A DNA stretch of 64,000 bases from contig CP064979.1 in assembly GCA_016699575.1 (NCBI GenBank), positions 2,576,824 to 2,640,823 of the forward strand, written 5' to 3'. The notes beneath the pieces are model-generated. The model made no database searches. It was given only the letters and a program-made list of their open reading frames with translations, and was not told the origin of the DNA. How positions within the stretch are numbered: position 1 is the stretch's first letter; each line of letters starts with the position of its first letter. Shown here piece by piece: positions 2,068-51,117 of the stretch. The translations under genes were made by a program, and so were the position numbers. Origin of the DNA: Flavobacteriales bacterium. Its GTDB lineage: Bacteria > Bacteroidota > Bacteroidia > Flavobacteriales_F > PHOS-HE28.

Positions 2068-4587
2068 ATGAACCTCCGAGCTTGCCTGTTTCTCTCTGCG
2101 TTCACTTTGATCGGAACCGTCCGCTCGAACATCCCGCCGGATTTTTACGGTCAGAAGTCGAGCCGAAGCATAGGCTATTTTGCCAATGAAGGCCAAGTGC
2201 TGCAGACCAATGGCAATAGTGCCAGTGCTGTAGCGGCATACTCGTTCGGAGCTTTCCCGCAGACCTATTTCCTGCACGAGTCAACCGTCTACTTCAACGC
2301 AAGGGAGAACGACGGAGACTTCAGTACCCCCGACCCGTCTTTCTCTTTGCGGTTCCGTCCGATCGGCGAGAATGCTGCACTTGTTTCGCCAGACCTTATT
2401 GGCCAGCGGTCCAACTATCAGAACTTCTTCCTCCCGCAAACGGCTCCCAACGGTGTGGTTGGTGTGCATGACCACGAACGTCTTCACTACAAAGATGTCT
2501 ACCCCGGGATCAGCATGCAGTTCTATGGCACGAGCGCTGGGCAGAACCTCGCTTTCTACGCGGAACCGTACAGCGACCCTTCGGAGATACAATTGCTGTT
2601 CGAGGGCCAAGACAGCTTGCATGTGGACTGGCTCGGGAATCTCAAGGTGCTCATCGCGGGGAAGTGGATCCTTTTGCGTGAGGCCGTTGCGTACCAGGTC
2701 GATGCCAACGAGAACGTCATCCCGCTAAATTGGAACGCACAGTACGAGGAGATCAACGGGCAGGACATCATTGGATTCATCTTTGATACATATGACCCGA
2801 GCCTAGCTCTGGTGCTCCAGATCGGTGCGATGCCCCTCGATGAGCCGGACCCAACCGAATACTTGTGCTGGGGCTCATACTACGGTGGTACTGACATGGA
2901 GGAACTCTACGCGAGCGACACCGATTCAGATGGGAATTTCTACCTCACAGGGTATTCGAGCAGCGACTTCCTCACCTTCCAAAGCAACGTTGGGGTGGAT
3001 CTGGTTGGCAATGATCAGGCGGTCGTTGTGACCAAGTTCCTGGCCAACTACGAGTTAGACTGGACCTTGTTCTACGGCGGATCGGATGATCAAGCGGGTA
3101 GGGACATTGGGGTGCGGGAACTTGGTGGCAACACCGAGATTTTTGTAACAGGATACACGAGGGCGAACGATTTGTACACCTGACCCTTGGCCGGCGCATA
3201 CAATGACTTGACGGCGAGCAGCCTCTGGGAGAAAGGCTTCATACTACAGCTCGATGTGACCGGAGGAATAGACTGGAGTACCTACTTCGGCGACGATAGA
3301 ACTCGCTTGGAGGGGTTGGATTTCGATGCGACGGGTCGGCTCTATTTGGTAGGCGATTGGGAGTACAGCTATCCCTCACAATCGCTTGCCGGTGCGTCCT
3401 CTTGGGCAGCCGGTGGTGAACACGATCTTCTGTTGGCGCGCTTCAGTGCAGCAGGAGCTCTTCAATGGTGTACTTCGTACGGGGGCTCAGACTCCGAGTT
3501 TGGGGGCGATATCGTTTGCACGCCACAGGGCTTTTGGGTCAGTGGGCAAACGCTGAGCACCACTGTTCCGCTCATCGCTGGGAGCGGGTATAACCAATCT
3601 GTTAATGCTGGCGGGCGCGACCTACTGCTGCTCGCGTTCAATAGTTCAGCGGCCTGCCAGAAAGCAACGTTCGTTGGCGGGAGCGATCATGACACACCTG
3701 GGGTCAACAGCCTCGCAGCAACGAGCAACGGGCATGTCTACTTCGTTGGGAATACATTGAGCAGCGATTTTCCATTGCAACAGAGCACTGGATTCTACGA
3801 CGACACGAACGGGGACAGGGCTGCATTCGTGCTTCAGTTCAGCGGCGTCACTAGGGCAATGATGTGGGGTACTTATGTGTACGGCAGTGGAAACAACGCC
3901 TTCGAGACGGCCGTGGTGGACAACCAAGAGAGATTGATAGCCGTTGGCTTCTCCAAGGATCCGAACTTCCCGTTGTGGCAGGCGCCGAACACGTTCTTCC
4001 AAGGTTCCATTATCGACCCTGTAGGTTTTGTCAGCTACTGGGGATACGATGGTGCCATCATGTGCTTCAACCCTGCGCACGTTGTGCAGTACGCGAGCTA
4101 TTTCGGGGGAGAACAAGGCATTTACGGCGACGTGGTGCACACTGCCTCAGTGCATGCCAATCGTTTGTTGATCGCCGGCATGACAGACAAGGATGGGATT
4201 AACGTTGCTGGGTACTTCCCGCTTTTTGATCCCGGTTTCCCGGCGTACTACGACGAGACCTATGATTACAACGGCGGTAGCAACTATTGGGATGGTTGGG
4301 TTGGAGCGATATGCACAGATTTCTTCAGCGCACTGAGCGTGGATGAAAGCACTTTCGGCATGCCTACCGCGCAGTGGTTGGATGGCACGATCACACTGTG
4401 TGGCCTGTCACCTGGGAGGACGCACTGCCGGTTGGTAGATTCTCGTGGAAGACTAGTTCGAGAGAGTAGTGTTGTGGTGCGGCCTGATGGGCGGGCCGAC
4501 TGGAATTGTGGCTCTGTAGCCGCTGGAACCTACGTGCTTCGCACGGATCAGAACTCGTCGGCGGTAAAGGTGGCCGTTCAGAACTGA
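2068..4587 (+). pseudogene. SBBP beta-propeller-repeat T9SS cargo protein, split by an in-frame TGA at 3181-3183 (ORFs 2068..3183 and 3187..4587 share one frame)
   Basis: Signal peptide MNLRACLFLSAFTLIGTVRS. Repeated SBBP-type units (Y/F-GG-sDxD-xG-xIavD-GN-Y-tGxT-S-DFP). The single stop falls inside one repeat unit. The C-terminal ~80 aa (..GTYVLRTDQNSSAVKVAVQN) resembles a Por/T9SS sorting domain. The upstream half lacks a C-terminal sorting domain and the downstream half lacks a signal peptide. Confidence 0.6.
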
Positions 4588-4595
4588 CCTGCTAC

Positions 4596-5948
4596 ATGAA
4601 ATCGCTTGCTGTACTTGTTGGGTGCTTGCCGTGTTTTGCACTGGCTCAGGACAATTGGATTGGGGCGGGTATGCCATACCTCACGTATGGCGTTCGAGAA
4701 CTCTACGTTGAACAGGAAAAGGATCGCCTCTTAGCGATGGGAGTTACTTCGGTGGGGCCTTTGACCTTTCCTGTTGTCATTGGAGAATACAACGGGTCCT
4801 CATGGGACGCATTCGGCGAGTTCGGTGGGTGGGTCTATTCTGCGTGTAGCTACGGTGATACGCTCGTAGTTGGCGGTGCGTTCAATGATGTGGGCGGAGA
4901 ACCCTTTGAGCATATTGCCGCCTTTTATGACAATGCGTGGCACCCATTTGGCGATCTTGACCAGTCTGTGCGCCGACTCCGGATTCTGAACGGAATCCTC
5001 TATGCGGTAGGTGCATTCGAGTACGCCGATGGGCACTTGTGCAACGGGGTGGCCAAACGTGTGGGTGGTGAATGGGTGAACTTGGGGAACTTGCAACAGG
5101 ATGTGCCTGGTGCCCCCATCTTGGTGGAGGTTGCTGAGTTTGCTGGAGATTTGTACGTCGGTGGTTCGCTCTCCTTGGCCGATGGAACCAATGGAATCGC
5201 CAAGTTCGATGGCACCATGTGGAGCGGGCCGGGAGGAGGAATTCTCGGTGGTGCAACCGCTGTGCTTGCCATGGAGGTTTACGGTGGTTCCCTATATGCT
5301 GGTGGTGAGATCGACATCAACTCCGGCAACGTGGGTCATGGGATAATGCGTTGGGATGGTAGCCAGTGGCATGCGGTAGGTGGTAGTGTGCAAGACATCT
5401 ATTGTGGGAGCAGCTATCCGGCGCGGGTATATGAACTACTGGAGCATGATGGACTGCTGCTGGTGGGCGGCGGCTTCGGCTGCGCGGGCGGCATACCGGC
5501 CAGCCGCTTTGCAGTTTGGGACGGCTATCAGTGGTGTGCCAATGCGAGTGTCATGACAGGCTACGTGGAGAGCATGGCTTTCTACCACGATACGCTCTTC
5601 ATCGCCTGCGGTCATGTGGTGGAGGGCGATAGCGTGAACCGTGTGGCCAAATGGGTAGGGGGAGCTTACGGGGATAGTTGCCAGGTCGTGGCCGTGAACG
5701 ATCCCGGGCCATGGCGGGACCGGCTGCGTGTCAGGGTCAGTGGTGCCGGGGTCCTGACCATTTCGGGGCTTCCCGACGGTCGCAGCGATTACTCACTATG
5801 CGATGCGATTGGTCGTGTGCTTGACACTGGCTCTTTGGCTGCCTTTGGTCCAAGTGCTGTGGAAGTTCGGCTACCAGGCCTTGCTTCCGGCGCATACGTT
5901 TTCGTTGTTGAGGGCCTTGCTTACCGATTCATTGTGGCTGAGCCATAG
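4596..5948 (+). CDS. Secreted repeat protein with T9SS C-terminal sorting domain
   Basis: ATG at 4596. [18 protein letters not shown] is a signal peptide. There are repeated G-G-x-F and (A/V)xWDGxxW motifs. The C-terminus ...[27 protein letters not shown] is typical of a Por_Secre_tail. Confidence 0.7.
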
Positions 5949-5986
5949 CGGTTGGCTTGCCGGGATCGCTTCTTTTGCGGCCCGCT

Positions 5987-6715
5987 ATGAGCAACACCTC
6001 CGCCCCCCGTACCTACAAGCGCATCCTCCTGAAGCTCTCGGGCGAAAGCCTGATGGGCACCAAGGACTACGGCATCGACAGCGATCGCCTGAACATGTAC
6101 GCTCAGGAGATCATCGGGGTGGCACGCGGTGGCATCCAAGTGGCCGTGGTGATCGGTGGCGGCAACATCTACCGCGGCATGCAGGCCAACGGCAGCGGTA
6201 TCGACCGTGTGCAGGGCGACCACATGGGCATGCTGGCCACCATGATCAACAGCCTGGCCTTGCAAAGTGCTCTGGAGGCACAGGGCTACAACACCCGGCT
6301 GCTCAGTGCCATCAAGATGGAGCAGATCGCGGAGCCCTTCATCCGCCGTAGGGCCGTGCGCCACTTGGAGAAGGGCCGCATTGTCATCTTCGGTGCGGGC
6401 ACAGGCAATCCCTACTTCACCACGGACACGGCAGCCAGCCTGCGAGCCATCGAGATCGAAGCCGATGTGATCCTGAAGGGCACCCGCGTTGACGGCATCT
6501 ATACCGCCGATCCCGAGAAGGACAAGACCGCCACCCGTTACGAGCGCATCAGCTTCACGGAGGTCTATGACAAGGGTCTCAACGTGATGGACATGACGGC
6601 CTTCACGCTCTGCAAGGAGAACAACCTGCCCATCATCGTCTTCGACATGAACAAGCCCGGCAACCTGGGCCGCTTGGTGAAGGGCGAGCAGGTAGGCACG
6701 CTGGTCGAGTTCTGA
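5987..6715 (+). CDS. pyrH: UMP kinase
   Basis: [14 protein letters not shown]...GGGNIYRG... are the amino-acid kinase family motifs. The ATG at 5987 is preferred over the upstream TTG. Confidence 0.95.
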
Positions 6716-23398: not shown

Positions 23399-23500
23399 CA
23401 AGACTCAATTCACAAGACACAAGTCCAAAGACACAAGTAGGATCACCAAGCACCCGGACCTTGACACTTGAGTCTTGTGTCTTGTGACTTGAGTCTTCAA
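23399..23500. repeat. Imperfect ~38-bp inverted repeat (CAAG-rich) forming a large stem-loop in the sucA-sucB spacer
   Basis: Left arm aagactcaattcacaagacacaag... pairs with right arm ...cttgtgtcttgtgacttgagtctt at about 29 of 38 positions. The loop is ~22 nt. Confidence 0.6.
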
Positions 23501-33107: not shown

Positions 33108-33130
33108 GGTGCGAAGAAAGGCCATGAGGA

Positions 33131-33239
33131 CATGTGACCATGGGCCCATGTGGCCATGTGACCGTGCGGAAGCTGCACGGCGCGCGATCCTACATTCGCC
33201 CCCTATGAGCGCATGTCCACATGGGCCCATGGGCACATG
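33131..33239. promoter_or_regulatory. Two inverted copies of 16-mer CCATGGGCCCATGTGG in the tatD/heptosyltransferase divergent intergenic region
   Basis: Each copy contains the perfect palindrome CATGGGCCCATG. Copy 1 is at 33138-33153. Copy 2 (reverse complement) is at 33216-33232. Copy 2 is embedded in the 28-bp near-palindrome catgtccacatgggcccatgggcacatg, which ends in the heptosyltransferase ATG. A 6-bp-stem hairpin lies between the copies at 33162-33180. Confidence 0.5.
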
Positions 33240-44634: not shown

Positions 44635-44925
44635 ATGGATGAGCTGGAGCAGCACTTGTTGCCGTGCTTCTACAAGCAATACTTCGGCGTTGATTGCCCG
44701 GGTTGCGGCATGCAACGATCAATGGTCGCTCTGCTGGAGGGCAACTTCTCCGAGAGTTTCCACTTGTTCCCTGCGTTGGTCCCGATGATGGTCATGCTGG
44801 GCTTCCTCGCCCTGCACTTGGTGTTCAAGTTCGAGCGGGGCGGCACCTGGTTGAAGTACATGTTCATCGGTGTAGCGGCCATCGTTACGGTGAACTATGT
44901 GTGGAAGATGGTGTGCGCGCAGTAG
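44635..44925 (+). CDS. DUF2752-family small membrane protein
   Basis: CPGCGMQR motif near the N-terminus, then two TM helices. It is immediately downstream of the DUF4190-like gene. Confidence 0.65.
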   Translation: MDELEQHLLPCFYKQYFGVDCPGCGMQRSMVALLEGNFSESFHLFPALVPMMVMLGFLALHLVFKFERGGTWLKYMFIGVAAIVTVNYVWKMVCAQ

Positions 44926-45039
44926 GAACGGCCGATTGGTTGTGCTGGCTATCGGCACAGGCTCAACTTCCCACAGCGCCAGGTCTTTCGCGACGGAGTG
45001 GTTCCATTGAACGTGCCTGACGGTCTCTATTGTCAGGTG

Positions 45040-45250
45040 GAGCGTGTCTTGGGGCGGAGTGAGGGCTTCTCGCACGGCGCTGACCTTGTCCTTTTAGGGG
45101 CGGAGATCTTCTTGGAAGGCTTGAAGAGCTTGTTGTCAAGGGCGGAGGGCTTCTTGGAAAGGGCGATGAGGTTGTTGGGAGGGTGGGAGTGGATGTTTTG
45201 TCAGGGAGAGAGGCTTTTGGAGCGGTGTGCGAGCGTTTGCCAACACCAAG
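45040..45250. repeat. Degenerate ~43-bp tandem repeat array (4-5 units) in a 660-bp gene-free gap
   Basis: Units share GGGCGGAG..GGCTTCTTGGAAAGGGCGA-like cores. The array is followed by the hairpin ccacctttt-gctcgcc-aaaaggtgg at 45259-45283. Confidence 0.4.
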
Positions 45251-45585
45251 TCGTTTCCACCTTTTGCTCGCCAAAAGGTGGAGCCAAAAGGCGCCCACGA
45301 TCAAAGCACTGGCCCAGCCCACGCAAGGCCCACGCACGGCCTTCGGGCTGGGCCGTGCCGCGCTGATCGTGGACATCCCCGCACGACTGCCTGCCGAGGC
45401 AAACACGCGAGGGCAAGCGGGGTAATACAGGGTACCGGTGACGCTGCTTTGTTAAATGGTACCGTTGCTGAGATCGGGTGGCGGAAATGCACGGTGGGCG
45501 TGGGTTTGGACGTTGATGAGTGCGAGCCCGGGCATTGTGCCCGGGAACCGAAGGGCGGCCGGACCGCCCAGTAAAACCAAGTACC

Positions 45586-46272
45586 ATGAAGAAGACCGCT
45601 GAGAACCGCATGAGCATGTTCTATGCGGTGGAGGGGGTGTGCGACAAGCACACGCTCGTGTGGACCCCTTTGGTGCCCTACGCCACGGCCGTGGGCGAAC
45701 TGAAGGACAAGATCCTGTTGTTGGAGGACGCTGTGCAGCTGCAGGAAAGCGAGCTGAAGGGCTACGCCGAGGACAAGCGGCACAAGAAGGAGGCGATGGT
45801 GGACAAGACCCTTGAGGTTGCGCAGGCCACCTACGCCTTGGCGGTGGACAAAGGCGACGATGTGCTGAAGGCCCAAATGGACCACAGCCGCAGCGACCTG
45901 CTGCTGGGCCGCGATACGGTGGTGGGCCAACGCTGCCAGGACGTGCACGACCTGGCCAATGCGGTGGTGGTGCAACTGGCGCCGTACGGCATACTGCCCG
46001 CCGACATGACCGCGCTACAAACGGCCATTAACGCCTACGTGACGGTGGTGGACGCACCGCGTGTGGCGGTGACCGTGCGCAAAGGCGCCACGACGGCCAT
46101 TGACAAGTTGGTGACGGAAGCCACGGCGATCCTGACCGAGCGGATGGACAAGCTGATGGTGGAGTTCAAGAGCAGCGCGCCGGACTTTTGGCAGCAGTAC
46201 TTCGATGCCCGGATCATTGTGGATCTGGGCGGGAAGGAAGAGGACGAAGAACCGCCGCCGCCTACGCCTTAA
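45586..46272 (+). CDS. Hypothetical protein (228 aa, helical, acidic Pro-rich C-terminus)
   Basis: ATG at 45586 (MKKTAENRMSMFYAVEG..). GC3-rich coding pattern. No family assigned. Confidence 0.5.
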   Translation: MKKTAENRMSMFYAVEGVCDKHTLVWTPLVPYATAVGELKDKILLLEDAVQLQESELKGYAEDKRHKKEAMVDKTLEVAQATYALAVDKGDDVLKAQMDHSRSDLLLGRDTVVGQRCQDVHDLANAVVVQLAPYGILPADMTALQTAINAYVTVVDAPRVAVTVRKGATTAIDKLVTEATAILTERMDKLMVEFKSSAPDFWQQYFDARIIVDLGGKEEDEEPPPPTP

Positions 46273-46654
46273 GGCGGTGATGTGGAAGCCCGCGCAGAAG
46301 ACAGCTGCGCAGGGCACACGCCAACAAGTGGCCCTGTTGGCGGCGGCAAGGCCCGGTGAAAGCCGGGCCTTGTTGTTCGTGTGAGGATTTCGGATACGTT
46401 TGGATTGACCATGCACAGGACAGGAGGCGGGCCAGAGGCCATAGAGCGTCCCGGTAGGGACGGGGACTTACTCGGGCAAGACTCGGGCGCGTTCAATGGA
46501 CAACGTTCGAGCGTTTGCGGGGCCTGGAGTGTGGGCGTTTCGCTTTATAGCCGTTGTTGGCTGGCTTTACGAAACCCCCTTCCTCACCCAAGCCCGGATA
46601 TTGACGCAATGCGTTAACCCTCAGTTACCTGCAAGGCTAAAAAACGACACGACA

Positions 46655-48385
46655 ATGAAGAAACTAACTGTAATAATATTGACTTTCTCTTTTGCATTGA
46701 CTGCATTAGGACAGACATTTGAACCTCAAATTTTAATTTTGACACCAAATGAGTTCAAGTACGAAAAAACTTTTGATAAGGAGATAAAATCAGCTAACAA
46801 AGAACTCTCAAAAAGACCAAAGAATTCCGAACAAACCGACTTTGTAAAATCAGAAGAATTTAAAAAGCAGCCTGACAACATTCAAAGAATAACGCTTTCT
46901 GAAATCAGCTTTTCAGAGAAACTTGACTTTTCAAAACAAGCAAGTTTTATTGCACAGCAGTATTTAGCTTATCGTTTTTATGAACGTTTTCCAAATTTGC
47001 TCATTCTACTTTCTAATAACAAATCAAATGGCAGTCCGACAGAATTAAAGAAAATCGCAGACAGTGATAAAATTCAGTATGTTCTAAATTTTCCACGAAT
47101 AGAACTTTATAAAAGAGACGGGATTAGTTTTGCGAAAATAACCGTTCAGCTATATGACAATTCTTCTCAAACCTTTCTAATAAATACCGAATATGAAGGA
47201 GATTGGACAAACCCAGGTTTTGAATTTGCTTGTACTGACAAATCTATTGACTGCACAATTAGCAACGCCTTATCAAAAGCACTTGGAGATGTAATTTATC
47301 AAGTAGCTTCAAACAGTCCGACAATAAAAAGAGACCGAGAACTTGCACAACTTCGTTTTGACGAGCTTGTTTCAAAGTATTATTCAAATACTAACAACAA
47401 GGAGTTTTTAAAACCAATAATTACTCAGCCTGACAGCAATATTGTGTTAAAAGACCAATATCAAATTTTGATAGACCCTTCACAAACTAAGTTTGTTGCC
47501 TTTTTCATAGAACAAGTTTCTGCGCAGGACTTCAAAGCTATGAAAGACAACAAGAGAGATAAAAATGTAAATATCATATCAAGCAAAGACATTAAAGATG
47601 AAGGTTTCTTAGATGATATTCCACAAACTTATGCTTACATTGTTAAGGGTGTAAAACATAATGAAAAGTGGTATTACGAAAAATCAAATGTTACTTACTT
47701 TGAAGCAAAAACTCTTGAAGAAGGCAAACAGAAATATTTTTACAACCTTAATAAATGGAACTTTTTCAAAGAGAACTCAACTGAATTTAATCCTGACTTT
47801 TGGGAAACGAGTCTATTCAAAAAAGTCAAAGACTTAAAACAAGAACCTGATTGGGACAAATACGGTGAAACTATATGGAAAACTCAAGAAGTAAACGACC
47901 GTCCTTATATTGGTCATTATGAAATTGTCGCCAATCAACTAAAAAAAGATGCTTCAGCGAAATCAGAAAACTTTGACCGAAAAATAATTGAAGAAATAAC
48001 ACGACCACTTTCTGAAAAAATCAAGATAGAAGGAAATTACGAGATTGTTTCTCTAAAACAAATGTCAAAGGACTATTTGTTAATCTACCCTACGGACAAA
48101 TCAATTATACTGACCCCTATTAAAGTCAAAGAAAAAGATGGAGAAATGTTTATAAGATACTTTGTTCTTATTCCAAACAAAGACAGTTATGACATTTATG
48201 AATGGAATTACTTAGACCCGAAAAAATTTAAGAACTCGCAATTGGGACCGAGTTTTATGGACCAAATCAATACTTTGACAACTTGGAATTTTTCATACAA
48301 AAATTTAGACGACAAAGATTTTTGGGAAAAGTATGTATTATTAAAAGTAGGTGACAACTATAAATACCTAACCAAAAGACAATGA
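46655..48385 (+). CDS. Hypothetical secreted protein, AT-rich (cassette 1, 576 aa)
   Basis: ATG at 46655. Signal peptide MKKLTVIILTFSFALTALGQ. The protein is Lys/Asn/Glu-rich. Its codon usage is completely different from the flanking genes. Confidence 0.65.
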   Translation: MKKLTVIILTFSFALTALGQTFEPQILILTPNEFKYEKTFDKEIKSANKELSKRPKNSEQTDFVKSEEFKKQPDNIQRITLSEISFSEKLDFSKQASFIAQQYLAYRFYERFPNLLILLSNNKSNGSPTELKKIADSDKIQYVLNFPRIELYKRDGISFAKITVQLYDNSSQTFLINTEYEGDWTNPGFEFACTDKSIDCTISNALSKALGDVIYQVASNSPTIKRDRELAQLRFDELVSKYYSNTNNKEFLKPIITQPDSNIVLKDQYQILIDPSQTKFVAFFIEQVSAQDFKAMKDNKRDKNVNIISSKDIKDEGFLDDIPQTYAYIVKGVKHNEKWYYEKSNVTYFEAKTLEEGKQKYFYNLNKWNFFKENSTEFNPDFWETSLFKKVKDLKQEPDWDKYGETIWKTQEVNDRPYIGHYEIVANQLKKDASAKSENFDRKIIEEITRPLSEKIKIEGNYEIVSLKQMSKDYLLIYPTDKSIILTPIKVKEKDGEMFIRYFVLIPNKDSYDIYEWNYLDPKKFKNSQLGPSFMDQINTLTTWNFSYKNLDDKDFWEKYVLLKVGDNYKYLTKRQ

Positions 48386-48407
48386 CAACAAAGAGAAGCC
48401 CAGCAGG

Positions 48408-48537
48408 TAACAGCACCTACCCAAAAGTGGCGGTTCAGTGGTTAAATCAAGCTTTGTGCTTTTATCAAAGTTTGTGCTTGGTTGACAGTGAAGTGCTTCG
48501 AAATCGCCACCTTCGGGTAGCTGCAAAACGTTATAGG
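48408..48537 (+). repeat. attC-like imperfect palindromic element 1 (~130 bp)
   Basis: Left end TAACAGCACCTACCCAAAAGTGGCGG. Right end CGCCACCTTCGGGTAGCTGCAAAACGTTATAG (inverse complement with bulges). There is an internal direct repeat TTTGTGCTT x2. It ends with a GTTA.. core-like motif. It begins 23 bp after the ORF stop. Confidence 0.5.
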
Positions 48538-48694
48538 GCATTTTAAAAGACTACAAAAGCACGACAAAAATGATAGTTCGGAGGGAAAAATATTCATACA
48601 ATCCAATAATGCAAAACCTTATTTTTTCTAAATTTGGAAAGACATTGAAAAATAATTTTTAGGTCAATTCGATTAACACAATAAAAAAGAAAAT

Positions 48695-49090
48695 ATGAAC
48701 ACAACGTTGAGACATTTAATATTTCTTCTTCTAGTAACTGCATTTTTAAGCTCTTGCGAAAAAGAGACTATTATTGATTACTATATAGATAACCAATCCT
48801 CAACCTCGATTTCTATAGATGGAACTGATATTATTCATTCGGTGGATATAGACTATACTATATCTGAAAATGAAAAAATGAAAATCACTAATTGGTCAAA
48901 ACGAGGTATTCAATCCGACTTATTTGAACCTACGACAATGTTTGGAAATGATTTGCTAATTATTAATTCCAATAGTGATACACTTCAGAAAGATTATAAA
49001 CTCTTGTCGAATTGGCAATCTAGTGTGGACGACGAAAGAAAAACTGTTTCTCACGACTATATTTTAGTAATAACAGATGCAGACTTCTAA
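48695..49090 (+). CDS. Hypothetical lipoprotein, AT-rich (cassette 2, 131 aa)
   Basis: MNTTLRHLIFLLLVTAFLSSCEKE has a lipobox Cys. A TAAATTTG (Bacteroidota -7-like) motif lies at 48629-48636, ~60 bp upstream. Confidence 0.6.
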   Translation: MNTTLRHLIFLLLVTAFLSSCEKETIIDYYIDNQSSTSISIDGTDIIHSVDIDYTISENEKMKITNWSKRGIQSDLFEPTTMFGNDLLIINSNSDTLQKDYKLLSNWQSSVDDERKTVSHDYILVITDADF

Positions 49091-49101
49091 AAAACGCCCT
49101 A

Positions 49102-49229
49102 TAACAGCACCTACCCAAAAGGCGGGGTTTCGTGTTCTAAAGACAGTTTTGTGGTTAATCAAACATTAGTTTTTCAAATCAGGTTTTGTGGTAAAAGTCC
49201 CGCCCTTCGGGTAGCTGCAAACCGTTAGC
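49102..49229 (+). repeat. attC-like imperfect palindromic element 2 (~128 bp)
   Basis: Left end TAACAGCACCTACCCAAAAGGCGGGG. Right end CCGCCCTTCGGGTAGCTGCAAACCGTTAGCGG. There is an internal direct repeat TTTTGTGGT x2. It begins 12 bp after the ORF stop. Its right end (GTTAGCG) abuts the duplicated fic 3' segment. Confidence 0.5.
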
Positions 49230-49241
49230 GGTCGTTTGTTT

Positions 49242-49490
49242 TCAGTGACTGGTCGGATGCCTGTACACCGCCGCCCTGCCTTCCCCGATCCTCACCAGTC
49301 GCGCCCTTGCCACCGCCTCGGCCAGATCCCTGCTCGCACTGGCCGTGCTGAGCCTTGGGAACGCGTTCATGTGATCCTTGCGGCGGAATGGACGGTCCGG
49401 TGCTTGGGCCATGAAGAGCGCGATGCGGTCGGGTGCGCGGCGCACGGGGTCGGGCATGGACAGGAGTTCGGCCAGGGCTTCATCGAGGCG
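49242..49490 (-). pseudogene. Truncated duplicate of the fic 3' end (C-terminal ~83 codons), copy A of the ~265-bp direct repeat
   Basis: The translation ..RLDEALAELLSMPDPVRRAPDRIALFMAQAPDRPFRRKDHMNAFPRLSTASASRDLAEAVARARLVRIGEGRAAVYRHPTSH is ~90% identical to the C-terminus of the full Fic gene at 50078-51052. The nucleotide identity extends over 49222-49490 versus 50059-50330. Confidence 0.65.
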
Positions 49491-49513
49491 AAGTCTACTG
49501 GTCTGCGCGAAAT

Positions 49514-49807
49514 TCAGAAGGGCCTGTCTGCCGGGTTGCGCCGAACGTGCCAAAGTGTGAGGACGTGCACGGCGTTCGACGTGGCGCTGTAGAAGATCAA
49601 ATGGTCTCCTACGGTCTTCACTCGAACGTCAGGGTCGCTTGTCGGTCGCCCGATCTTCGGTTGGGAGGCGATGAGCCGGAGGGCGGAACGGAACATGCCG
49701 TCGAGTTTTTCGCTGTAAAGCGTTGAGCCATTGCGCTCGACCCAATAAGCCAGGATCTCCAATCGCTGCCGGTGGGCTTGCGCGGACCAGACTATTTGCC
49801 GAACCAT
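49514..49807 (-). CDS. Type II toxin, ParE/RelE family
   Basis: 97 aa, ..DHLIFYSATSNAVHVLTLWHVRRNP is a ParE-like C-terminus. It overlaps the upstream antitoxin ORF by 16 nt. Confidence 0.8.
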   Translation of the reverse strand: MVRQIVWSAQAHRQRLEILAYWVERNGSTLYSEKLDGMFRSALRLIASQPKIGRPTSDPDVRVKTVGDHLIFYSATSNAVHVLTLWHVRRNPADRPF

Positions 49808-50028
49808 TCGTCCACGGCCTTGTTGGCCTGCGCGGCCGAGAGCGTACGGCCCTCTTTGATGTCTTTCTTGCCGCGCTTGATGGAAGCTTGCTGCTCCTTG
49901 CTCAACTTATACGGTTCCAGGTCTGCGGCGTCGGTGCCGAGCAAGCGGTAGGCTTCGCGGAGCAAGGCACTATCGCGTGAGCGCTGAATGCGGTTGATGA
50001 GGCGCTTTTTCAGTTCAACATCCGACAT
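49792..50028 (-). CDS. Putative antitoxin (addiction-module component, 78 aa)
   Basis: Small charged protein directly upstream of, and overlapping, the ParE-like toxin. Confidence 0.65.
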   Translation of the reverse strand: MSDVELKKRLINRIQRSRDSALLREAYRLLGTDAADLEPYKLSKEQQASIKRGKKDIKEGRTLSAAQANKAVDEWFGK

Positions 50029-50077
50029 GGTGCAATGGATCGATCGCGTAAATCTAGCGTGCTAACGGTCGTTTGTT

Positions 50078-51052
50078 TCAGTGACTGGCCGGATGCCTGT
50101 ACACCGCAGCCCGGCCTTCCCCGATCCTCACCAGTCGCGCCGTTGCAACCGCCTCCGCCAGATCTCTGCTCGCACTGGCCGTGCTGAGCCGCGGGAACGC
50201 GTTCATGTAATCCTTGCGGCGGAAGGGCCGGTCAGAGGCTTGGGCCAGGAAGAGCGCGATGCGGTCAGGCGCGCGGCGCACGGGGTCGGGCATGGACAGG
50301 AGTTCGGCCAATGCTTCATCGATGCGCTCCATGAGGTAGGTGACGAAGAGGCCGCAGTCGCCCTGGCGGTCGGCGTACTCGAGCGCGGCGTAGTAGGCGG
50401 GCTGGGTGCGCTGGATGAAGCCCTCCACCGGCAGGAAGCCGAAGACGGGCCAGTGGCGCATGAGCACGCGGCGCTGCCAGAGTCGGGCCATGCGCCCGTT
50501 GCCGGCAGTGAAGGGCCGCAAGTACACCAGGCCGAAGTGCAGCAAACAACTGGTGATGATGGGCGGCGCATCGTCGTTCTCCACGAAGTGCAGGAGCTCC
50601 TCCACCAGCACGGACATGTTCTCGGCCGGGGCCACGCGCAGCGGAGGCGGTTCGCCGTAGAGGACGTCCATGGGCCCGGTGCGGTAGGTGCCGGCATCGA
50701 GGGCCAGGCCGTGCATGAGCACCCCGTGCGCGTGGCGCAGGTCGTGGGCCATGAAGGGGTCGAGCCCCGGCAGCAGCTCATGGGCGCGCTGGGTGTTCAC
50801 GGCTTCCAGGGCTTCGGGCCCGGCGGTGTGGGTGGGGTGCGCGACGAGTTCGGCCACGGGCAGGGGCTCCAGCTGGTTCCCTTCCAAAGCCAGCGTGGCG
50901 TGCACGGTGCGGATGCGGTATGCCAGGTCGAGGTCGGCCGCCGGGCGCCCCAAGTGGCGGGCGTGCACTTCGCCCAAGCGATGGTAAATGGACGTGAGCA
51001 GGGTGAGCATCCTGCTGTGCATGGTGTAGAAGGCGTAGGAGGAGGGGAGCAT
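50078..51052 (-). CDS. Fic/DOC-family protein with a non-canonical motif (RPFTAGNGRMAR)
   Basis: The Fic core ..LRPFTAGNGRMARLW.. is present. The ATG at 51052 is preferred over the upstream TTG. The C-terminal helical domain matches the duplicated fragment at 49242-49490. Confidence 0.85.
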   Translation of the reverse strand: MLPSSYAFYTMHSRMLTLLTSIYHRLGEVHARHLGRPAADLDLAYRIRTVHATLALEGNQLEPLPVAELVAHPTHTAGPEALEAVNTQRAHELLPGLDPFMAHDLRHAHGVLMHGLALDAGTYRTGPMDVLYGEPPPLRVAPAENMSVLVEELLHFVENDDAPPIITSCLLHFGLVYLRPFTAGNGRMARLWQRRVLMRHWPVFGFLPVEGFIQRTQPAYYAALEYADRQGDCGLFVTYLMERIDEALAELLSMPDPVRRAPDRIALFLAQASDRPFRRKDYMNAFPRLSTASASRDLAEAVATARLVRIGEGRAAVYRHPASH

Positions 51053-51057
51053 GGAGT

Positions 51058-51117
51058 TCAAGTGTCAAGGCTCAAGTTCCAAGTCCCAAGCTTCAAGAAG
51101 ACTGAAGACACAAGGCC
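51058..51117. repeat. CAAG-rich repeat, second locus of the family seen between sucA and sucB
   Basis: ttcaagtgtcaaggctcaagttccaagtcccaagcttcaagaagactgaagacacaagg. It shares the 13-mer tcaagtgtcaagg and a gaagact(c/g)aag(a/t)cacaag segment with the arms of the 23399-23500 element. Confidence 0.45.

Follow-up and report, generated by a model that had tools for sequence, protein, structure and literature searches.

The closest described systems are the integrons, whose canonical attC sites and attC clusters without an integron-integrase (CALIN) were described in 2016 (PMC4889954). There, a gene and an imperfect palindrome form one unit, AAC and GTT are invariant, the crossover lies at G|TT, the first bases of each cassette are complementary to its own R'' end, cassettes form same-strand arrays, the bottom strand folds better than the top, covariation keeps structure rather than sequence, and two sites may stand together with no integrase nearby. 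All of these features recur in the attC-like elements reported here, which lie in a 64,000-nt stretch (the window) of the chromosome of a Flavobacteriales bacterium (CP064979.1, positions 2,576,824 to 2,640,823; assembly GCA_016699575.1). For Bacteroidetes, the IntegronFinder 2.0 report gives only earlier In0 elements plus one complete integron, in Salinibacter, and a preprint of 2024 places Bacteroidota with the clades 'previously found without any integrons'. Published work holds the IntI-specific domain to be necessary for attC recombination.

We find that positions 46625-49224 of the window very probably represent two integron-type cassettes, each made of a leader, a gene and a 132-nt attC-like site, drawn from a pool that spans the Bacteroidota. 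A reading made from the letters alone (the sequence-only reading) had already proposed cassettes of this kind. The features of the locus are as follows.

46625..48530, plus strand: cassette 1, 1906 bp, consisting of a 30-nt leader, the gene for a 576-aa secreted protein and attC-like site 1; left edge taken from L137 and related contigs, right edge from the start of cassette 2 in five other contexts
46655-48385, plus strand: cargo gene 1, encoding the 576-aa signal-peptide protein, starting MKKLTVIIL
48405..48536, plus strand: attC-like site 1, with R'' TAAC at 48408-48411, a 20-pair stem, a 72-nt centre with four GTG units, an AAAAC loop and R' GTT at 48530-48532
48531..49224, plus strand: cassette 2, 694 bp, consisting of a 164-nt leader, the gene for a 131-aa lipoprotein and attC-like site 2; identical at 692/694 nt to the copies in L008/L009
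48695-49090, plus strand: cargo gene 2, encoding the 131-aa lipoprotein with an LSSC lipobox
49099..49230, plus strand: attC-like site 2, with R'' TAAC at 49102-49105, R' GTT at 49224-49226 and crossover at 49224|49225
46612..46624, plus strand: left junction, host side (..GTTAACCCTCAG), where the sequence is still GC-rich; identical in the independent Logan assembly L001
49225..49553, minus strand: host side of the right junction (TTAGCGGTCG..), running into a Fic gene 3' fragment, which is a duplicate of 50076-50326

The 2.6-kb insert has a G+C content (GC) of about 32%, in a chromosome of about 60-62%. In 300-nt windows GC is 0.27-0.35 at about 46650-49200 against 0.57-0.65 on both sides, a step at both junctions. 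The sliding GC profile and the open reading frame (ORF) calls thus bear out the sharp drop and the abrupt AT-rich block with two same-strand ORFs of the sequence-only reading. Its boundaries had to be moved: the left edge is not GTTAACC at 46611-46617 but G|TT at 46624|46625 (CAG|TTACCTGC), and the duplicated host segment, placed at 49222, actually starts at about 49231-49240. The left junction reads CCCTCAG|TTACC and is present base for base in a separate short-read Logan assembly of SRR11674035. A 91%-identical relative of cassette 1, in contigs L137/L140, begins its homology precisely at G|TTACC, with unrelated sequences upstream. The right junction reads ..AACCG|TTAGCGGTCG, its crossover lying at 49224|49225. 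To its right a direct repeat (49240-49490 and 50076-50326) is 92% identical, and a 103-aa ORF matches the C-terminus of a Fic protein.

Survey of the 64-kb window by tblastn detected no integrase, in keeping with the earlier impression that none was visible. With two sites 694 nt apart, called with a family-specific covariance model (R1, see below), and no integrase in 64 kb, the locus fits the CALIN description, as had been suggested. Scanning the window with R1, filters off, gave just these two sites (next-best match E = 2.1), and a full-model scan turned up no further or degenerate site, either at the left junction or in the neighbourhood of the toxin-antitoxin block to the right of the insert.

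The two elements are 132-nt imperfect palindromes with identical arms, equal arm-to-arm distance and divergent middles, so that a same-architecture element after each ORF, the core of the earlier proposal, holds exactly. The shared left arm TAACAGCACCTACCCAAAAG stands at 48408-48427 and 49102-49121 and the shared right arm CCTTCGGGTAGCTGCAAA at 48510-48527 and 49204-49221. Allowing up to 3 mismatches, the 64 kb hold no extra copy of the 20-mer left arm, and shuffles predict none. The elements start 19 nt (site 1) and 8 nt (site 2) past the stop codons. As members of the R1 seed, both match that model by construction, with scores of 120.8 bits (E 2e-25) for site 1 and 114.5 bits (E 5e-24) for site 2. 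Folding, a check that the sequence-only reading had called for on the bottom strand, showed the minus strand of each element to be the more stable: bottom and top strand reach -22.2 (z -2.7) and -19.4 kcal/mol (z -1.2) in site 1, and -22.7 (z -2.9) and -16.8 kcal/mol (z -1.1) in site 2. The internal TTTGTG repeat noted earlier is real and belongs to a family-wide periodicity of four units of 18-19 nt. The suggested likeness to RYYYAAC/GTTRRRY stands for the AAC and GTT triplets and fails for the remaining core bases (AGGTAAC/GTTATAG and CTATAAC/GTTAGCG). Copies of site 1 that are 95-98% identical occur in many genera. Rfam, which has no attC family, returned no match for the whole window at gathering thresholds, nor for 48380-49260 at E <= 1. 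The central repeats were also considered as a Bacteroidetes promoter (TTTG ... TAnnTTTG), an idea dropped for the unsuitable spacing in both window sites.

The edges of the mobile unit are seen best in cassette 2. Its 131-aa protein recurs without a single changed residue in 38 index blocks from public assemblies, and ten contexts were read. The left edge of homology is G|TTATAGGGC in 10/10 contexts, preceded by four distinct sequences, namely three different palindromes and one site adjoining a recombinase gene. Five contexts retain the whole site, and in them the right edge is ..GCAAACCG|TTA (..AACCG|TTA), past which the sequence runs on as TTAGCGTTC.., as TTATATGC.. or, in the window, as TTAGCGGTCG.. 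The cassette recurs at 99.7% identity in unrelated low-GC contigs. Furthermore, in cassette 1 the start (G)TTACCTGC (46624-46632) is complementary to GCAGGTAAC (48403-48411), where GTTACCTGC pairs with GCAGGTAAC; likewise, in cassette 2 GTTATAGGGC (48530-48539) is complementary to GCCCTATAAC (49096-49105). The first 9-10 nt of each cassette thus complement its own R'' end, as would be the case for a cassette in circular form, with the site completed at the junction of the circle. Judged from these comparisons of sequence, the mobile unit is the gene plus its element, apparently cut at G|TT.

The site that follows the 131-aa gene is itself a place of insertion in five contigs (L002, L003, L004, L010, L011), where an insertion sequence (IS) with a DDE_Tnp_1/DUF772 transposase lies within it (e.g. 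L011 697-2540). The IS stands after TATAACAGCA, at the identical position in all five, and the half of the site beyond it is of a different attC-like subtype.

A two-arm pattern scan of one genome per species returned at least 120 stretches, and among the matches listed nearly all were titled Bacteroidota. The listed carriers belong to Flavobacteriales, Chitinophagales, Sphingobacteriales, Cytophagales and Bacteroidales, with a few records lacking an informative name, and include the isolates Pedobacter glucosidilyticus DSM 23534 and P. psychrophilus CCM 8644. Across these five Bacteroidota orders there are whole elements that match those of the window at 95-98% identity. From the fetched loci, 69 diverse sites of about 132 nt were chosen by a pairing screen as the seed of R1, a covariance model with 24 pairs, which detects 172 + 133 sites in the loci. 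Every seed has AACA at the left and CGTT at the right, and one T-A pair is invariant as well; the rest of the stem is variable. AAC and GTT are present in 69/69 seeds; the core consensus is nnYAAC / GTTA(G/T)(C/G)n, which departs from RYYYAAC/GTTRRRY beyond the triplets. In loci with several sites, all sites share a single strand (60/60), with a median start-to-start spacing of 1041 bp.

The stem is conserved as a structure. Aligned R1 hits have 85.7% of cells paired, versus 60.8% when shuffled and no more than 43% when partners are slid, covariation scores 0.556 versus 0.135 in the control, and double-sided changes occur at 20/20 stem pairs, all figures that lean towards structure, as the alignment was fitted to the model and the seed selected for pairing. 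Most stem positions, however, show three to four Watson-Crick pair types, which is beyond what selection alone would produce. One stem position is A.C in 63/69 seeds, that is, T.G on the bottom strand. Overall, G.T pairs number 151 on the bottom strand versus 29 on the top, and among sites outside the seed the bottom strand is the more stable in 154/184, by about 3.3 kcal/mol. The 69-site alignment contains no conserved single-base bulge (extrahelical base) and has a 1x5 loop and the conserved A.C/T.G instead. The 72-nt centre (48434-48505 and 49128-49199 in the window) consists of four GTG-centred units with a period of 18-19 nt, conserved where stems differ completely; these units may be candidate arm-type binding sites.

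Conservation does not stop at the crossover: in 235 distinct flanks from loci L017-L136 it runs on as GTTAnnnGnnAT, and 94% of these flanks have A at +11; in the window this leader stretch occupies 46624-46636 and 48530-48542. A-rich leaders with ..GACA..ACGACA.. motifs come after GTTAnnnGnnAT. The functional site probably takes in the first bases of the following cassette. Neither of the two plasmid records inspected annotates the 132-nt sites, and because most carriers are short contigs, the sites probably break short-read assemblies.

In many genomes the sites stand behind a tyrosine recombinase gene. Among 23 loci having a homologue, 19 carry the gene upstream and on the same strand, with all sites downstream. 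About 100 nt past its stop codon lies a conserved attI-like core, ..G(G/T)ATAAAYRAG|TTA.., joined to the first cassette, and in L008/L009 this first cassette is cassette 2 of the window. Such an attI-like core was found in related loci only, and none is present in the window. A Chryseobacterium plasmid (L145, NZ_CP041688.1) bears a complete platform, WP_143853951.1 followed by at least seven same-strand sites, and a conjugative Emticicia plasmid bears four sites. The annotation of WP_143853951.1 is 'site-specific tyrosine recombinase/integron integrase', a name which shows that the resemblance of the protein had already been noticed at NCBI. A GC-rich integrase suspected beside the cassette of L018 was rejected, as tblastn and the ORF list show none. 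Together, the G|TT crossovers, the complementarity to R'', the same-strand arrays behind a recombinase, the covariation and the bottom-strand bias support reading these units as attC-type cassettes.

Two further insertions mark the sites of the Chryseobacterium plasmid. One is an IS110-family element, the other a group II intron (about 2290-3545 and 4755-6610); each has entered an attC-like site precisely at its R'' end, GGTAA(C), and the reverse transcriptase of the intron is on the opposite strand. In classical integrons, IS1111-attC elements and group IIC-attC introns form a parallel; insertion of introns and IS at folded attC sites there was reportedly described by Leon and Roy in 2009.

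The recombinases, about 345-374 aa when full-length, resemble both integron integrases and Xer proteins. The best NCBIfam match of the protein is TIGR02249 (integron integrase), 218.7 bits in two stretches, below the cut-off of 265. Residues 40-214 align with residues 8-182 of VchIntIA (PDB 2a3v) and residues 230-308 with 240-318, at 27% identity over the core-binding and catalytic domains; between them, 15 residues replace 57 of VchIntIA (183-239), the IntI-specific I2 region. With archaeal XerA the alignment runs through without a break. XerA and VchIntIA are about equal as top structural matches, with P. abyssi XerA the top PDB match. At the N-terminus the proteins carry an extra domain of about 95 aa, confidently predicted as beta-beta-alpha-beta-beta-alpha and without a Pfam match. 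In the related loci the adjacent recombinase lacks intI_Cterm, the IntI-specific domain. Thus, set beside IntI (VchIntIA, TIGR02249), the proteins share the best family match, and differ in their sub-cut-off score, shortened I2 region and added N-terminal domain; set beside XerA/XerC/XerD, they share a similar core length and an alignment unbroken where IntI has its insertion, whereas Xer enzymes use a 28-bp dif in double-stranded DNA and have no cassette arrays, 132-nt hairpins or extra N-terminal domain. The 28-bp XerC-spacer-XerD flanks of pdif modules are likewise absent here: the sites are 132 nt, with variable arms and conserved pairing.

The sites, too, differ from canonical attC. They scarcely depart from a length of about 132 nt; where canonical sites have an unpaired central spacer that is roughly symmetric, they have a 1x5 asymmetric loop; one position bears a conserved T.G wobble (top strand A.C), and conserved single extrahelical bases are absent; the centre is built of four 18-19-nt units where the canonical loop varies freely; and conservation reaches +11 beyond GTT. 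Vibrio cholerae repeats (VCRs), in sedentary chromosomal integrons, are attC sites of about 120-130 nt that are near-alike within arrays. The homogeneity of VCRs, however, concerns one genus, whereas near-identical sites (95-98%) in Bacteroidota span orders of the phylum. 'Inverted' integrons of the Treponema denticola type, with intI and cassettes co-oriented, are said to go back to Coleman 2004 and Boucher 2007. In archaeal integrons attI lies immediately downstream of intI (PMC9668308). As in both, the recombinase of the Bacteroidota arrays is upstream and co-oriented and an attI-like site follows the 3' end of its gene; in contrast, inverted and archaeal integrases carry the additional IntI-specific domain and the Bacteroidota proteins do not. 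We file the system as integron-like, of a distinct Bacteroidota type, and not as a canonical integron.

From these comparisons a mechanism may be proposed. Arrays start at the attI-like ..ATAAAYRAG|TTA.., some 100 nt past a tyrosine recombinase gene that has their own orientation. The bottom strand would fold into a hairpin composed of an R box (TAAC/GTTA), the asymmetric 1x5 loop, the 20-pair stem that includes the T.G wobble, and the 72-nt centre. Acting on this folded single strand, the associated recombinase would exchange strands at G|TT, so that cassettes leave as circles and re-insert. At the present locus a circle with both cassettes would have been inserted by a recombinase acting in trans, the target being a chromosomal AG|TTAGC pseudo-site between a hypothetical gene and the Fic gene fragment. 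The simplest target before insertion, we infer, is CTCAG|TTAGCGG (46612-46624 joined to 49225-49234, CTCAG|TTAGCGGTCG). The transfer would be recent, from a low-GC Bacteroidota donor, and would have left the cassettes stranded as a two-site, CALIN-like cluster.

Related genomes, in which the sequence-only reading had proposed to look for an empty site, agree with an acquisition. The relative L013 (93% identical, rpsL side) passes from a DUF2752 gene to the Fic gene in 165 bp, without all of 44925-50076, and L014 has a homologue of the 228-aa gene, then a different gene before Fic, and no insert. Neither of them carries R1 sites, nor does L012, which has a Mu-like prophage at the locus. The insert-free comparison rests on the more distant relatives L013 and L014. 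The locus is an insertion hotspot. Comparable solo AT-rich cassettes are present in other GC-rich Bacteroidota metagenome-assembled genomes (MAGs). One of these, the Flavobacteriales MAG L046, holds a clean single-cassette insert at the target GCTAG|TTAGCAG. Further solo AT-rich cassettes occur in L018, L091, L082 and L093. Exact-protein look-ups of rpsG, ParE, the antitoxin and Fic matched no records, and tblastn showed no relation between the GC-rich spacer 46373-46624 and the gene at that position in L014.

In L012 (1-9100), which is 95% identical, the Mu-like prophage, with DUF3164, AAA_22 and a 679-aa gene of transposase size, replaces all that lies left of window position 50745 and cuts the Fic gene.

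How the two cassettes came to lie here could be told otherwise. They might be the leftover of a larger resident array, or have arrived with flanking DNA by homologous recombination, with 49225 the end-point of a deletion in a third cassette. The right flank GTTAGCGGTC does equal the first 10 nt of several unrelated cassettes and overlaps the host repeat through the microhomology CGGTC, and the block 44925-50076, which varies as a whole among relatives, also holds the duplicated Fic 3' end and the ParE toxin-antitoxin pair. A resident array nevertheless sits poorly with a left junction exactly at G|TT, GC-rich host DNA beyond it and no attI-like or attC-like site upstream, with the lack of an integrase or a remnant of one in 64 kb, and with the clean single-cassette insertion of L046 at a similar AG|TTAGC target; we consider such an origin unlikely. 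A distinctly smaller chance is given to Xer-like recombination of double-stranded DNA as in dif/pdif, the palindrome then being two inverted protein-binding arms. The recombinase is as close to XerA as to VchIntIA and has no I2 region, and the partner sites in L046 share 10 nt (GTTAGCAGTA) around the crossover, like an overlap region; the partners in the window, however, share GTTA only. That arm sequences vary freely while pairing is kept argues that structure, not sequence, is recognised, and the systematic bottom-strand bias through G.T wobbles and the group II intron and IS110-family element exactly at R'' on the plasmid point the same way.

Two last explanations are far less probable again. 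An assembly or binning artefact, in which foreign reads were joined into a MAG, would account for an insert 99.7% identical to DNA of low-GC organisms, and the source is indeed a metagenome-assembled genome. Yet the host contig is a 4.48-Mb chromosome (4,479,215 bp), the Logan assembly spans the left junction exactly, both junctions fall precisely at the recombination point of the system, unlike those of a chimera, and comparable inserts exist in other GC-rich MAGs; we hold an artefact to be very improbable. Least credible of all is the alternative kept by the sequence-only reading, dispersed repeats of the miniature inverted-repeat transposable element (MITE) or repetitive extragenic palindrome (REP) type that flank foreign genes by chance. 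Elements of about 130 nt, palindromic and 95-98% identical between genera, do look like such repeats, but they show no target-site duplications, always stand just after a same-strand ORF, keep one orientation in 60/60 multi-site loci and number two copies only in the window, and what moves is the gene plus the element with G|TT ends. Boundaries, complementarity, arrays, covariation and strand bias all contradict it.

Returning to the two integron-type cassettes, several points weigh against them. The evidence is comparative throughout, with no recombination observed. Single extrahelical bases, conserved in canonical attC, are missing from the sites, and their cores fit RYYYAAC/GTTRRRY at AAC/GTT only. 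The right flank TTAGCGGTC resembles common cassette starts, so an array may have been truncated here rather than inserted whole. No strain-level empty site was found, both host flanks giving 0 matches in metagenome contigs. Finally, the recombinase is without the IntI-specific domain, so that either its chemistry differs or another partner is needed.

Taken as a whole, the data suggest a wider picture that we put forward tentatively, giving it somewhat less than an even chance: a widespread integron class of the Bacteroidota's own, on chromosomes and plasmids, missed by standard tools. Without I2, the integrase of this class would carry out recombination of folded attC-like sites at G|TT, using the N-terminal domain instead and possibly reading the four 18-19-nt repeats with it. 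Its cassettes would cross orders of very different GC and lodge at AG|TTAGC pseudo-sites in genomes without a nearby integrase, as in the window. If true, Bacteroidetes are not almost devoid of integrons, contrary to the literature, and I2, the IntI-specific domain, is dispensable for folded attC recombination, which contradicts Messier and Roy 2001 and Escudero 2016 and 2020. The system would offer a natural test case of a Xer-like enzyme acting on structured DNA. The cassettes are also a route of gene flow, taking DNA of 32% GC into a chromosome of 60% GC at 99.7% identity, among environmental and wastewater Bacteroidota and including conjugative plasmids. Full-text literature, subscription journals not covered, yielded no description of the site family, so that a prior description is possible, and the examined part of the IntegronFinder supplementary tables does not mention the plasmids and genera found here.

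Both cargo products are predicted exported envelope proteins, and neither matched Pfam or NCBIfam. They are deposited as QQR85115.1 (cargo 1, 629 aa) and QQR85116.1 (cargo 2). Cargo 1 has 346 homologues, of which every named one is from Bacteroidota; its AlphaFold2 (AF2) model has a predicted local distance difference test score (pLDDT) of 83, with weak, domain-level Foldseek matches to periplasmic lipoprotein folds of the FlgT/PelC/LpoB/CsgG type. The mechanical ORF of cargo gene 1 extends back to 46496 through GC-rich DNA, and the start of QQR85115.1 is an ATG in this host DNA, 53 codons upstream of the cassette boundary (46496-46654). As the relatives of cassette 1 are 549-597 aa and start with MKKL, the 53-codon extension is probably an annotation artefact. 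TAnnTTTG is the -7 promoter motif of Bacteroidetes. The sequence TAAATTTG at 48629-48636, 58 nt upstream of the start codon in cassette 2, fits it, and this cassette may carry its own promoter. The leader of cassette 1 is 30 nt only.

Between cassette 2 and the intact Fic gene (50078-51061) lie three minus-strand genes, the Fic 3' fragment (49242-49553) and the ParE toxin-antitoxin pair (49514-49807 and 49792-50028). On the minus strand the toxin-antitoxin block starts just past ..AACGACCG|TTAGCACGC (about 50055-50075), where a GTTAGC pseudo-core resembles the core at the cassette junction; there is no attC-like site beside the block. Elsewhere in the window a CAAG-rich 38-nt inverted repeat lies at 23400-23497 (82% complementary, 22-nt loop), and a similar CAAG-rich stretch stands upstream of the Fic gene (51060-51115). 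In L013 a 39-nt match to the 23400-23497 repeat adjoins that genome's own Fic gene, and the CAAG-rich repeat is host-specific. A cluster of CATG-containing repeats with 8-nt spacing (CATGTGACCATGGGCCCATG..) occupies 33116-33239, and a 28-nt inverted copy, 93% complementary, lies 53 nt off.

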